NCBI GenBank assembly: GCA_964016885.1
Contig: CAXHJY010001564.1
Location: 1 to 17,138, forward strand
DNA length: 17,138 bases
Reading direction: 5' to 3'
Origin: Eledone cirrhosa
Taxonomy: Eukaryota
Shown: positions 4,102 through 16,920 of the stretch, piece after piece
Layout of the letters: each line of letters starts with the position of its first letter
Numbering within the stretch: position 1 is the stretch's first letter
Made by a program: the position numbers and the translations under genes
The notes under the pieces: model-generated
Database searches by the model: none
Seen by the model: the letters and a program-made list of their open reading frames with translations, nothing else
What the model was told of the DNA's origin: nothing

Positions 4102-4150
4102 TGGCTTACAATGTTTCTTCCTTACGTAACCGTAGGATTCGTCAGAGCTA
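4102..4150 (-). ncRNA. Minimal type I hammerhead ribozyme (PLE-terminus type)
   Basis: Minus strand reads tagct-CTGACGA-a-tcctacg gtta cgtaagga-a-GAAAC-att-GTA-agcca, followed by AATAAA (4102-4097). Core motifs and stem II are present, and stem I is short (3 bp plus one distal pair). Confidence 0.75.
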
Positions 4151-4389
4151 TAAAAGGGTTTGATTGGTGTTATGGACTCTACCTACCAAACATTCAAGAA
4201 CAAAGAGTAAAGAGAGAAAGTAGGGGACGATAAGTCTAATTTTGGTGTGGGAGGGTGGGGCGTGGGTCCTTGTTTACTAGCTGCGGTCATATTCATTCCC
4301 GGGAGTCGAGTGGTTAGCTGAACCATAGATGGGGTGGCGTCGATAGTATGGTGCAGAGGGTGTGCAGAAGCTACACAAACACAAAGAGC

Positions 4390-4780
4390 ATACAATATAT
4401 ATATATATAACGGAGGAGAAAGTACATGAGGTAATTAGAAATGGAAAAAGAGTAATAATAATAATCTATAATTAATAATGTATAATAAGGCATGGGGAAG
4501 ATTACACTATAATAAGGTATAAAAGTAAGAATAAGGTAAAATATAAAGGAGAATAAAAGTGGAAATAATAAAGATAAAAAAAAAAAAATATATATATATA
4601 TATATATGTATAAAAATATATAGAGAATATATAAAGAAATATAAGCGAATATTTGGAGGGGAAAACACAATGTAAAAAAAACGATATTTTCGATTTTTTC
4701 AAATAAAATAAAAATATAATTATGGGGGGAGAAAACGGGATAGAGAAATATGATCAAATGTGATTAGTTGAGAGAATATA
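4390..4780. repeat. A/purine-rich low-complexity tract
   Basis: Runs of A, AAT, GA and short TA repeats. Confidence 0.7.
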
Positions 4781-5744
4781 AGATGATAATAGTTTTGTCA
4801 AGTTTATACATCTTAATAATAAATAATCTGTGTATCAGAGTTACAGAACCTTCAATTCACTTACAGGTTCAAGCCACGTGGCATAGTCCATTGTTTATCT
4901 GTGCGGTCATGCGCGTTTGTCTTTGACACCACAGCAGATGCACAAGTTCGTAAATTCCAATGCAGATAGAAATCTATTTTTGCTCACCCGGACATTGACG
5001 GAGGATCCAATATTCCTAGTTCAATATGTGTTTGGTGTTATTTTGGTCGCACAAATCAATCACTTGGTTCAATATTATGGAGTATGGTTTTCTGGTCTTC
5101 GTAACAGTGTCAGTGGTTGTATATCTCGAAATCACAAGGATCACAGTACTCCGGTTTGGTGTGATTATCGGTCATCCAGCTATGTTGTTGGTGGTTGGAT
5201 TCATTTCTATTAGCCCGAACGTTGAACTTTGGTGTCGATAGAACATTAACGAGGCAGGATTAGATCGCATCTGTGGTACAAAACGGTACGCAAGGAAATT
5301 CTTTGTCTTCGTTTCATCCGGGTCCAGCAGTCACGTGCAAGAACTGCTACGTAGTAATTGTGGGGTTAATCGGTCAAGTCAGCAACTGACCGAAAATTCT
5401 CTTAGGAATTCAGACAGGCATGACAGGCACATTTAGGTCAGCAGCTTTCAACTCAAAAAATTCAGTTGATTCACCTATTGATATTATATCTGTGTTTTGC
5501 CATTACCTTGGAATGTGATGTTATGGTCATCAATAGTCCGGCAAGCGCATATCTCTCTTATATTGCGGAGAATGGTGTTCTGGTCCTCAGTAAACATTTG
5601 GGTCGGCAGGAGGGGTGGTGGTTCTCAGTTTCAACTTCGACAATACATATGTGTTACTCTGCATATCATGCTCCTCTCAAAGAAGAGTATTATAGGAGGA
5701 ATTCGTGCCACACACCACATATAGAGAGGATTTCTACAGAAAAG

Positions 5745-6030
5745 TATACATACATATACACATATATACACACATCATACACTCACACACACACACACAT
5801 GCGCATACATACATATATTCACATACATGTCACATATACACATACACACAATATAATACGCATGCATACAATATACATATATATATATATATATACAATA
5901 TACATGCATACAATGCACGCACACATGCATGCGTGCATGCACACACGCACGCACATACACATACATATATCTCTGTGTGTGTGAGAGAGAAAAGGAGAAC
6001 ACACACACACACATACACACACACGCAAAA
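5745..6030. repeat. Imperfect (CA)n/(TACA)n/(TA)n microsatellite
   Basis: Direct reading of the sequence. Confidence 0.9.
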
Positions 6031-6147
6031 ACACCAACCTTGTAGGGGACTGTACCACCCTTAGGGTACCTATCTATCTGGGTTACGGGTTGGGGGAAGG
6101 GGGGGGGGGCTATAGTCTAGGTGGGGGTTGCGTGATATATGTTGCGT

Positions 6148-7482
6148 CTATGTGCTAGGTTTAAAATAGAAGAAGGAACTCAGGGTTTTGTGTTGGCAAG
6201 AGGAGAAAATTTCCGATTTCCTGTTAAGCAGGTTCAGTTTAGAGTGTATTATGGCATGGCATTCCAGTAAGCACAGGTCACAACTTCCGCTCTGCGGTCG
6301 GTATGGCGTGGATCTAGTAAGCTTCTTCCAAAAAAGTTTGTATGGGGTACTATTATTTTTTAAAAAGGAGATGTATACTGCCAGTGAGGTGGCATTCTTA
6401 TGTCTATCGTGTCTAAATGTGTACATATGCGCGTTAAATCTAGTTTTAAATGTATTGGACGTTGCTCCTATATATGTTTTGGTAGAGTTGTGTGTAGTTA
6501 CGTCACATGCATATACAATGTTTTTCATGAGGCAATCCCCCCTTAGGGGACAATTACTACTCCGCCTACAATTGCAACTGCGGGTTCGATTAGTTAGCGT
6601 ACCTCCCGAAGTTTGGTTACTAGCATTATCACTAGGTGCCTCTATATCATTAGATGGCTCATTGATGCTATTATGTTGCCCATTTTCCAGTGTAGTCGGT
6701 TGCTGGTGGTTAACTGCCATTTTAATTGCTTCAAAACCTTCCCTAGTTTTCCTAATGTTCGTGCGTGCTAGGTGTGATGCGAGGTTAGGTGTGGTCGAAT
6801 AGGATAATTTAATTACGTTTTTGTTAATTATGTTGCGATATCTCTTGCCTGGTGGGAAGTTTTTTTCCAATAATGAGAAGAATACTCTGGGGAGGTTAGT
6901 GAGGACCTCAGAGTTAAAAGGTGGGTTAAAATACATGTTTTTCCTTCTTCTATTTTTCTTATCTGTGGGGTGAGTCTTGCTACTGTGCGTACTATTTTGT
7001 AGGGTTCCGTTATTAACGATAATGGCGTTGTCTGTTTTGCTTAAGCCCGGATGGTTTATATTCATGGCGTGATCATTTACTGTTTTAGAGTTGTGGTGAG
7101 GGATTCTAGTATTGTCTTTACGTGGTTCACATTTAGCTGGGTTACCGCCATTAGGGTTCTTACTATTATTCTTGCCTCTAAGTTGGTTAGGCTTTGTGGC
7201 CATACTATGTGTGAATATGTTGGTAGGTTTCACACTCATGGTTTGGGAGTCCTTATGTATATATGATAATCTACTCCCGTAACCAGATTCTGCTAGGGCC
7301 CTGTCATAATACTCTGCATAGGAGTTGAAGATACTCTCATTACAGGACAGTCTGCTAATTCTATTAGAGACCCCCTTGGAAATAGCGTTTAGGACTGATT
7401 TGGGGTGGTTAGAGCTGGCGTTTACATATGTTAGTCTATCGTTAGGTTTATGGTAGGGTGCAAATGTTTTACTTTCTAGGTC
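6148..7482 (-). CDS. Penelope-like element (Naiad-type) ORF, 5'-truncated: RT thumb + Cys-rich linker + GIY-YIG endonuclease
   Basis: The frame stays open 81 codons upstream of the listed ATG (7239), to 7482: [37 protein letters not shown] (PLE RT thumb). It continues with [45 protein letters not shown] (GIY-YIG), CDLCLLE and [14 protein letters not shown]. The upstream part is cut off at a TA tract. Clade call is from recalled motifs. Confidence 0.88.
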
Positions 7483-7483
7483 A

Positions 7484-15290: not shown

Positions 15291-15308
15291 ATCATCATCA
15301 TCACCGTT

Positions 15309-15663
15309 GGAGGCACATGGCTTAGTGGTTAGAGCATTGGCCTTGCAATCGAAAGGTTGTGAGTTCAATTCTCAGACCGGGTGATGTGTTGTTTCCTTGA
15401 GCAAGAAACTTTATTTCACATTGCTCCAGTTTACTCAGCTGTAGAAATGAGATGATAGGGACTGAGATCCATATCATTCCACTGCAAACTGGTCGTGGAG
15501 GTGCCACGGCAAAAAAGCACCCAGAACTCACTGTAAATGAGGTTGGTGTTAGGAAGGGCATCCAGCTGTAGAAATCAAGCCAGAAACAGTTCCCGTCCCA
15601 CCCTTGCAAGCAGAGAAAAAAGCGGACGTAAAATGAAATGATGATGATGATGATGATGATGAT
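15309..15663 (+). mobile_element. tRNA-derived SINE with RTE-derived 3' end
   Basis: A box TGGCTTAGTGG (15318-15328), B box GTTCAATTC (15363-15371), CORE/Meta-like body (tccttgagcaagaaact), a ggaagggcatcc domain, a 3' end matching LINE family A, and an (ATG)n tail. Confidence 0.88.
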
Positions 15664-16269
15664 ACATATACATATATATATATATATATATATAAATGAT
15701 GATGATGATGATGATATACATATATATATATATATATATATATATTAGAAAGTGAGGTTTTTTTTTACAAAATGAAAAATAACCGAAGTGTCTACAAAAA
15801 TCAATCAATGAAACCTCTGCAAAGAAGACAAAATTGAATTGAGACAAAACATTTGGGTGAGGAATGGTACCACAATTGGTTTTATTGATGAGTGTTGTAG
15901 TATTATCTATAGGACAAAACAATCATTAGATTAACTTAACTCTCAGGGAGATTTAGCAAGATACAGTGTGACAAGATGCAGTTTGAATTGCAGGTACAGT
16001 TCAGCTCTCAGGCTTCTTCCAAACAGTTTTCATCTTATCAATCTCACAAGTCTTGGTTCTACTCAAGGTTATGATAATAGAAGTTTACTCAAAATGCTAT
16101 GTTCATATATACAGTACTTATTTTATTGAATTTAGTGGAGATATGGTGTAGAGGTGGCATTGTTGAACTTTGTATATAGCTTCTAGAGAGACAAAATTTA
16201 GCACGGCAAAGCATTTAATCTGTTTCTCTTTACTTACCACTGTTACAAGTAAGTAATATAATAGCATAA

Positions 16270-16579
16270 TGCCCCATTTGGTCATGGAAAACCATGGAAT
16301 TTGCACCAAGAATGTTTCCCTCTGAGGCACAAGACTGGACAATGTTGTTTGTCGAAAACCAGCAGTCTCCCATGCATACCAGTCTCTCTGCTCCATGCCA
16401 ACGATGTTGTCCAAGGGAAAGGCAAAAGCTGGTACAGCTTGGCACCAGTAATTTCTACAGCGGAATTAACTGGAGCAACGTGAAATGAAGTGTCTTGCTC
16501 AAAGACACAATGCATCACCCAGTCTGGGAATTGAACTCAACTTACAATTGCGAGTTAACTACCAAGCCATGTGCCTTCA
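16270..16579 (-). mobile_element. tRNA-derived SINE, related head/body but different 3' part
   Basis: Minus strand gaaggcacatggcttggtagtt...gagttcaattcccagactgggtgatg...tttgagcaagacacttcatttcacgttgctccagt...gctgtagaaat aligns with 15309-15450. The 3' boundary is approximate. Confidence 0.8.
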
Positions 16580-16701
16580 CAATAGAATAGTATATTATTG
16601 TATATTTATGGGAGTGCGATATAAATCTCTATTATGTATTGTTTTGAGGGTTAAGCATAATTGTCTGATCTTTAGGTTAATCACAACTTGTTTTTCTTTG
16701 A

Positions 16702-16778
16702 TGTATATGTGTATATATAAATATATATATATATATATATATATATATATATATATATATATATATATATATATATAT
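16702..16778. repeat. (TA)n microsatellite
   Basis: Direct reading of the sequence. Confidence 0.95.
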
Positions 16779-16855
16779 GAAAATATGGGTGAGAAGAATA
16801 CTGCTGGTTGCATATATATATTAATAAATGGAAACTATATTTATAAAACCATATT

Positions 16856-16920
16856 TATTTCATTATACATATTTCAGGGATACCACATTAAATTATGGTA
16901 TGCCTTCATCAGACAAAATA
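16856..16920 (-). ncRNA. Type I hammerhead ribozyme
   Basis: Minus strand reads tattttgt-CTGATGA-aggcatacca taatttaatg tggtatccct-GAAA-tatgta-TA-atgaaata. Stem I is 8 bp with two G-U pairs. AATAAA overlaps the 3' end, and a TA tract starts ~78 bp downstream. Confidence 0.78.

Follow-up and report, generated by a model that had tools for sequence, protein, structure and literature searches.

Hammerhead motifs in TA repeats of Eledone cirrhosa as predicted 3′ ends of six families of Penelope-like elements

Penelope-like elements (PLEs) of the Hydra clade that carry hammerheads and lie in (TA)n have been published, one of them from octopus (PMC8557442). Elements of this clade, including Hydra-1_Obim (Craig et al. 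2021, PMC8557442), share with the Hydra-type families described here a GIY-YIG endonuclease (EN) at the C-terminus and without CCHH, CxCX5C, DKT, C-terminal CxxC/CxH, a canonical 3′ hammerhead, (TA)n insertion and 5′-inverted copies. Theirs are 1.1–3.0 kb long with short stems and tails of 30–40 nt, whereas ours reach 3.1–6.5 kb with a stem II region of up to 116 nt, tails of about 60–140 nt and 3′ UTRs of up to 3.5 kb, and form at least five sister families. Compared by eye, the published Hydra-1_Obim hammerhead matches none of the six here. Minimal PLE hammerheads (Cervera and de la Pena 2014, PMC4209133) likewise have a small palindromic helix III, an additional nucleotide at the stem II base, a U3-A8 variant, opposite-strand pairs 100–700 bp apart and mostly solitary copies from truncated PLEs, but a genome there has thousands of them (X. 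tropicalis about 9,000), against above 100,000 here. In Poseidon PAc of Anolis (Frangieh et al. 2024, PMC11167929), as in our system, two genomic ends bound the tail, the target is AT-rich and the hammerhead ribozyme (HHR) lies upstream of both. Non-LTR retrozymes (PMC7229834) likewise reach very high copy numbers of type I hammerheads (126,247 in axolotl); they differ in being short non-coding tandem repeats, of which none were found here.

The window analysed here is the whole stretch of 17,138 nt from Eledone cirrhosa. An earlier note on this DNA had listed eight hammerhead motifs, and all eight were found where it placed them; judged from sequence, they are the 3′ ends of six PLE copies lying in TA repeats (families A–F). 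Its description of a cluster of eight holds for the motifs and not for the events: the motif pairs 8597/9193 and 12241/12812 each mark a single inverted insertion, with one motif per arm, and therefore six insertions are present, two of them inverted pairs. Family A is a 5′-truncated Hydra-type PLE with its short end in TA (4054..7483, minus strand). It comprises the end of an ORF, a 2.1-kb 3′ UTR and the hammerhead, and is collinear with the intact tandem unit at locus L161 (4054-5448 at 90%, 5490-7483 at 92%); the 4102 motif is thus the 3′ end of the 6148-7482 ORF. Hammerhead A (4098..4154, minus strand) has its core at 4145-4139 with C3/U3 at 4145, a stem I of 3 bp, an internal loop and 6 bp, and predicted cleavage after 4107. 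The family B insertion (8155..8435, plus strand) matches the L170 unit at 100% and consists of an inverted tail piece of 41 nt with the long end (8155-8195) and a direct pLTR with the short end (8193-8435, plus strand), whose hammerhead has C3/U3 at 8237, a 10-bp stem I and predicted cleavage after 8371.

Family C forms an inverted insertion on both strands (8452..9298), with a long end on the minus arm, which runs to 8910, and a short end on the plus arm (8926-9298); C3/U3 and putative cleavage positions are 8646/8602 (minus) and 9198/9242 (plus). The inverted insertion of family D (12081..12990, both strands), 99% identical to the L165 unit, also has a long-end minus arm and a short-end plus arm, with a junction near 12590 and the corresponding positions 12357/12249 (minus) and 12822/12930 (plus). 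Family E is represented by the 3′ end of a Neptune/Nematis-like PLE (13287..13433, plus strand) with a U3-A8 core at 13327, putative cleavage at 13356 and G12A at 13347. Moreover, an isolated family E tail with the long end and without hammerhead, which the earlier note did not include, abuts a TA tract (15745..15796, minus strand). The Hydra-type 3′ end of family F runs to the contig end (16808..17138, minus strand; match seen to 17114), with its core at 16912, an 8-bp stem I and predicted cleavage after 16864.

Stem III is tiny and mostly palindromic, as described earlier: ACATTGT in A, ACGATCGT in B, ATATATAT in both C motifs, ACATATGT in both D motifs, ACCGGT in E and ATATGTAT in F, the palindromes of A and F being imperfect. 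AATAAA directly after all motifs except that at 8227 was also confirmed (7/8, 4–9 nt 3′ of the putative cleavage site; absent in B). The stem II region spans 116 nt in B and 90 nt in D. A relaxed type I descriptor with a stem I of at least 3 bp matched three times in the window (C twice, and F), against a mean of 0.003 matches per shuffle in 300 dinucleotide shuffles of non-microsatellite window sequence; chance motifs were rejected. On the window, hammerheads A, B and E fail this descriptor, and D passes with 1 bp of stem I. The covariation that the earlier reading called for was found, with both sides changed in 11 of 16 pairs of a 15-row alignment of C/F-type motifs and relatives that keeps two misaligned rows. 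Core nucleotides and stems I–III with covariation identify type I hammerheads, with the exceptions of stem I in D and G12 in the window copy of E; families A, B, C and F have the canonical pLTR hammerhead and D a core without stem I. The sequences thus point to type I hammerheads of PLE termini. As RNA, they would likely cleave themselves only as dimers or with protein help; dimer cleavage of PLE hammerheads was reportedly described by Lunse in 2017. The motif at 13323 had been called decayed, which applies to G12A only: G occupies position 12 in 97 of the first 100 family E copies listed, and the change at 13347 is copy-specific. U3-A8, in turn, is a family-wide covariation of a type already published for PLE hammerheads (PMC4209133).

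All six families occur as dispersed copies in the genome, and each lies downstream of an RT and C-terminal GIY-YIG ORF of its own, at 0.5–3.5 kb between the ORF and the hammerhead (loci L161-163 for A, L170-171 for B, L190 for C, L165 for D, L179/L181 for E and L183/L189 for F). This agrees with the earlier claim that minimal type I HHRs mark PLE termini and contradicts the claim of mostly non-coding retroelements. Units are 3.1–6.5 kb long with 3′ UTRs of up to 3.5 kb, which in family B carry TA tracts; intact HHR-ORF-3′UTR-HHR tandems occur in A, B and D. A single ORF with RT and then C-terminal GIY-YIG is found in A–D (849 aa in A at L161, 830 aa in B at L170, 856 aa in C at L190 and 781 aa in D at L165), F has two frames split by one stop, and no intact single-frame full copy of E or F was found among the loci examined. 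The CxCX5C linker is present in A–D and F. DKG is replaced by DKT in all four families with this region (A–D), the F copy being without it, and the N-terminal motif, readable in three of the five families, is RWK in D and RWR in A and B. By alignment, CCHH is absent in the Hydra-type families, and CxxC and CxH surround a conserved E and N in A–D; the F copy ends before them.

Families A–D and F form one lineage (47–55% identical over the RT core, SH-aLRT 100 in a quick tree), so that of the about six unrelated families proposed earlier, the number stands and the unrelatedness does not. By motifs and by this lineage, in a tree of homologues only, without named Hydra, Neptune or Nematis reference elements, these five families are classed as Hydra-type. 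Family E shares DKG, a CX4CxxC linker (within CX2-5CxxC; complete in L180, with one Cys replaced in L179) and a C-terminal, CCHH-type endonuclease with Neptune/Nematis PLEs and differs from them in its U3-A8 hammerhead; its sequence marks it as Neptune/Nematis-like, without placement in either clade.

At genome scale, one descriptor gave 102,460 matches against 947 in the reversed control, and the genome thus carries about 100,000 such motifs by this descriptor, in line with the multi-copy families expected earlier. An assembly artefact was rejected, as near-identical copies are dispersed over many contigs, and so were MITEs, as arms are unequal and ORF-linked. Flanks and copy ends show (TA)n insertion for the Hydra-type families, and the TA association claimed earlier was borne out: (TA)6 lies within 250 nt downstream in 24/30 and 25/30 position-ordered loci, against a background of 18%, and upstream in 7/30 and 8/30.

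Copies end at two discrete points, about 55–80 and 140–200 nt past the cleavage site, abutting the microsatellite. The distribution of ends is bimodal in all six families, with three modes in B, and both end sites lie in the 5′ UTR in A, B and D. Among 61 de-duplicated divergent pairs, 55 combine a long and a short end, one has two long ends, none has two short ends and five are unresolved, where 'long' in C, E and F, whose reference was cut at the long end, includes possible read-through. That 55 of 56 resolvable inverted insertions have one end of each kind suggests that RT starts at two fixed sites and uses each of them once. Mismatches between arms are fewer within one insertion than between insertions in F (0.44 vs 6.32), D (1.73 vs 3.29) and E (2.11 vs 4.33), without contrast in C (0.85 vs 0.83); alternatively, gene conversion between arms could cause this similarity.

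Taken together, it is very probable that the motifs are the hammerheads of pLTRs with which truncated or inverted copies of six PLE families, all protein-coding, terminate on the 3′ side. These copies were likely inserted by target-primed reverse transcription at (TA)n nicked by GIY-YIG. In this process, a protein dimer would nick both target strands, and uncleaved RNA of one source would be copied from two fixed sites downstream of the ribozyme, one cDNA being primed at the distal site and the other at the proximal one. These cDNAs would stop at independent lengths and then be joined into palindromes. The ribozyme is probably dispensable for insertion, because inserted copies run through it. 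Each insertion would leave TA on both sides, because of which TA-rich loci accumulate families; this would account for the cluster. For Poseidon PAc, in vitro work described RT starting at two sites, nicks in both strands and an HHR that is protein-assisted and dispensable (PMC11167929); there, however, the start sites are within the ORF and show no strand pairing, whereas pairing here is one-to-one per insertion.

The short end may instead be made after synthesis, if a single cDNA begun at the long end turns back on itself or changes template and the endonuclease shortens the second arm. This possibility, unlikely but to be taken seriously, accounts for one tail per insertion and for arm identity, EN-mediated resolution has been proposed (PMC8557442), and some window junctions are near-symmetric (−344/−341 in D). 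However, the two arms mostly differ in length (2559 vs 723 nt in one pair), and two RT start sites matching the tail ends were seen in vitro for the Poseidon PLE (PMC11167929). It is improbable that HHR cleavage and circularisation supply the template, as modelled in PMC4209133, with ends past the cleavage site arising by rolling reverse transcription on the circle. This would account for the tandems and for 5′ UTR sequence following the 3′ hammerhead, but family D, whose stem I is unpaired, spreads (a 31-mer occurs in 1,908 exact copies), and HHR mutants left insertion unchanged in vitro (PMC11167929). Non-autonomous, non-coding retrozyme-like elements mobilised in trans are very improbable, although most copies are short and ORF-less and retrozymes derive from PLE pLTRs (10.64898/2026.07.22.740005); 5′ ends differ from copy to copy and reach into the ORF, all six families have a cognate ORF, and 370 matches in 275 loci held only 15 same-strand hammerhead neighbours, two of them under 1 kb, and no array. 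Non-LTR retrozymes themselves were rejected on the same ORF linkage and for want of HHR-bearing tandem units that are short and non-coding. Mobilisation by Naiad proteins, which also favour (TA)n and are recorded for cephalopods, is hardly credible, since the EN is C-terminal in every linked ORF, the Naiad order of N-terminal GIY-YIG, CxC and then RT with DKA was not found, and canonical HHRs, present here, are absent from Naiads (PMC8557442); the 6148-7482 ORF (minus strand), earlier called Naiad-type, reads RT thumb, linker with CxCX5C and then C-terminal GIY-YIG (E=0.02, below cut-off).

Family D is young, with many identical intact 781-aa ORFs. Its hammerhead core is intact with only 1 bp of stem I adjoining it, and a pairing stem I was absent in 30 of 30 loci examined. 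Activity of this hammerhead through a stem I that an 8-nt stretch of a stem II arm completes, a topology outside the six published permutations, is quite doubtful: in nested folding, the 8-bp alternative pairing costs 2 kcal/mol, with a probability of about 0.06. In a protein search for relatives, all 150 of the 150 matches listed were D itself (at least 94%), and the alternative pairing was absent in five other long-stem-II motif loci (L256-L260; best 2–5 nt), and therefore this pseudoknot is without comparative support. A non-circularly permuted hammerhead was rejected for D, whose order is CGS and whose proposed partner strand would split block C.

Since this kind of element is already published, the window is an ordinary one for its genome. 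New relative to the cited PLE papers are the scale, the pairing of long and short ends, units of 3.1–6.5 kb with TA tracts in the B 3′ UTR and the family D core without stem I. A Pfam-A search of three full-length proteins gave no RT or GIY-YIG match, and of the 316 matches of an Rfam scan of the window, the 150 listed include no hammerhead and are dominated by microsatellite miRNA matches; thus, standard annotation would undercount such elements. Tentatively, and with less than even confidence, we propose that a Hydra-PLE radiation made this genome one of the most ribozyme-rich described through a self-feeding loop, in which (TA)n would be targeted, split and carried, and a dimer would prime one cDNA per fixed RNA site, one per target strand. 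The genome-level picture is useful in that the long/short rule, holding in 55 of 56 insertions, is a sharp prediction for the post-priming steps of PLE integration. Moreover, the identical ORFs of family D offer readily usable material for biochemistry, which would be the first on a Hydra-clade element that targets TA.

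All eight hammerhead ribozyme (HHR) motifs claimed in an earlier note were found in the window, one entire contig of a 3.0-Gb genome, and they belong to six Penelope-like element (PLE) families, A–F. Stems I–III are all complete in families B (8237, +), C (8646, −; 9198, +) and F (16912, −). The family A motif (4145, −) has a stem I of 3 bp plus 6 bp, and in the family D motifs (12357, −; 12822, +) the core is intact, stem II spans 90 nt and stem I has only 1 bp. The family E motif (13327, +) had been called a decayed copy; this holds for its G12A, which sits at a CpG and is specific to the window copy (of the 11,331 exact matches, the first 100 include 97 with G at position 12), but not for its U3–A8, a published hammerhead covariation (PMC4209133). 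Stem covariation was present: in an alignment of 15 motifs, pairing held in 88% of cells and 11 of 16 pairs had changed on both sides, exceeding every slid control, while related rows among the motifs inflate the shuffle control. C/F-type stem II consists of 3 bp, a C–C mismatch and then 6–7 bp (window 8646/9198, 16912 and 8237; L196–L225 elsewhere in the genome), and the two mismatched C positions are almost invariant in alignment A2. AATAAA lies over distal stem I in families A and F, and since no poly(A) was found after element ends, it is only a putative polyadenylation signal.

The predicted family D ribozyme may be inactive. At 12822–12938, where the core is intact and stem I absent, an 8-nt segment of a stem II arm complements the strand past the cleavage site, and this arrangement did not fit the non-circular hammerhead permutations in the accessible part of PMC10085705. 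Further hammerhead-like motifs with long stem II occur elsewhere (L256–L260), with stem III ACAT(A/G)TGT and stem I of 0 to 6 bp.

Every family is dispersed in the genome. First-look candidates numbered 1,487 (A), 631 (B), 748 (C), 1,595 (D), 576 (E) and 3,138 (F), with 40 scored per family, and these are lower bounds because family E has 11,331 exact matches. The elements were previously thought mostly non-coding; however, an ORF is linked to the HHR in A–F, in longer stretches picked for likely linkage, which show that coding copies exist and say nothing of their frequency. Intact HHR–ORF–3′UTR–HHR tandems were found for three families, with units of about 5.1 kb in A, 6.5 kb in B and 3.1 kb in D and ORFs of 849–850, 830 and 781 aa, respectively. 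Family C has an 856-aa frame (4.1 kb); broken ORFs are linked to the HHR via a 3′ UTR common to copies in E (3 loci) and F (2 loci). Window 4054–7483 is collinear with the family A unit, so a single element holds both the 4102 motif and the 6148–7482 ORF. An antisense frame of 209–210 aa over the family A endonuclease, open at 6170–6802 (+) and in 4/4 family A copies inspected (L161–L164), is probably a codon shadow.

A descriptor with stem II of 15–45 nt and an 8-nt quasi-palindromic stem III, which does not cover families A, D and E or the B form, matched 102,460 genomic places (about one per 29 kb), a count that, like the others, may be too high if the assembly contains duplicated haplotypes, versus 947 with the reversed control; stem I had at least 4 bp in 24 of the first 30 matches. 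In 150 kb of background there were 3 descriptor matches and 6 matches to the six family probes, and motif density in the window is roughly tenfold higher. Mixing is common, with another family's HHR within about 1.5 kb at 24/153 loci; one 3.3-kb stretch (L073) holds seven hammerheads from four families and exceeds the window in density. Schistosoma may come near the genome-wide density found here. The axolotl, whose genome is far larger, has 126,247 hammerheads (PMC7229834), and the giant squid annotation lists 235 (PMC6962438). The word 'ribozyme' is absent from the accessible part of an Octopus vulgaris repeat annotation (PMC13282606), and in the literature covered, which included few subscription papers, neither a Hydra radiation nor an HHR count this large turned up for such a genome.

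The proposed TA association was borne out. Within 250 nt downstream, (TA)6 occurred at 24/30 position-ordered descriptor matches, versus 18% in background (15 arbitrary 10-kb stretches), and upstream at 7/30; the family D pattern gave 25/30 and 8/30. A microsatellite directly follows the element end in 29/34 (A), 34/38 (B), 64/67 (C), 66/71 (D), 50/50 (E) and 76/81 (F) copies, TC/GA/TG repeats and each overlapping locus being counted. TA content is 21% in the window versus 4% in background, about fivefold. The family B 3′ UTR (L168–L174) itself holds about 14–17 (TA)6+ tracts, roughly 300 nt altogether, which lie at corresponding places in most of the 8 arms inspected, so that the element bears its own target type; the family A 3′ UTR also holds CA/TA arrays, as at 5745–5990. 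LINE fragments at 2800–3899 (−) and 13629–15153 (+), which we take to be RTE-like, encode RVT_1 plus a PHD finger, and short 3′ pieces of this RTE-like group lie near 10066–10157, 10664–10750, 11432–11645, 13486–13530 and 15480–15660. These fragments have (CAT)n tails, are likewise embedded in TA tracts and are a second retroelement group associated with TA. Short dispersed repeats at 15308–15450 and 16451–16581, found in another stretch (L143) too, are SINE-like by appearance.

Each family has two 3′ end points, short and long, at 55/150 (A), 64/201 (B, also 292), 56/about 152 (C), 62/168 (D), 80/142 (E) and 56/141 (F) nt past the cleavage site, and the stretch between them is the start of the following unit's 5′ UTR, the PLE 'tail'. 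Short blocks recur in both the C and the F tails (L002, L134), as does a terminal hairpin; this is a candidate structure for protein binding or for RT start. Among 61 de-duplicated divergent pairs, 55 were short+long, 1 long+long, none short+short and 5 ambiguous, with an 80-nt end taken as long and a 31-nt end as short, whereas independent choice would give short+long in about half. The rule holds for window insertions B, C and D. The two arms of one insertion have variants in common in F, D and E, and their lengths vary freely. We found no report of such strict pairing in a literature search covering few subscription papers; PMC8557442 remarks qualitatively that the tail is frequently at just one end. 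In a Poseidon PLE (PMC11167929), AT-rich DNA is nicked on both strands, the tail ends coincide with two internal RT start sites, the protein is a predicted dimer, and the hammerhead is protein-assisted, with insertion possible without it. We lean slightly towards a model in which each of two RT start sites would give one cDNA, one on each strand, and the two would become joined by their truncated ends. Fold-back with trimming is a less probable mechanism, and a circle is an improbable one.

The families are not unrelated, as had been supposed: A–D and F are 47–55% identical over the RT core and form one branch (SH-aLRT 100) in a quick tree with 45 homologues, all unnamed, so that clade membership is drawn from motifs. 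The motifs by which PMC8557442 recognises Hydra elements are present in A–D and F, and family E, with DKG, CX4CxxC and a CCHH endonuclease, is Neptune/Nematis-like; no family is Naiad-like, which argues against the Naiad-type mobilising protein once suggested. Hammerhead-bearing Hydra PLEs inserted in (TA)n, Hydra-1_Obim among them, have been published (PMC8557442), and the window elements are real, fresh members of this published kind of element.
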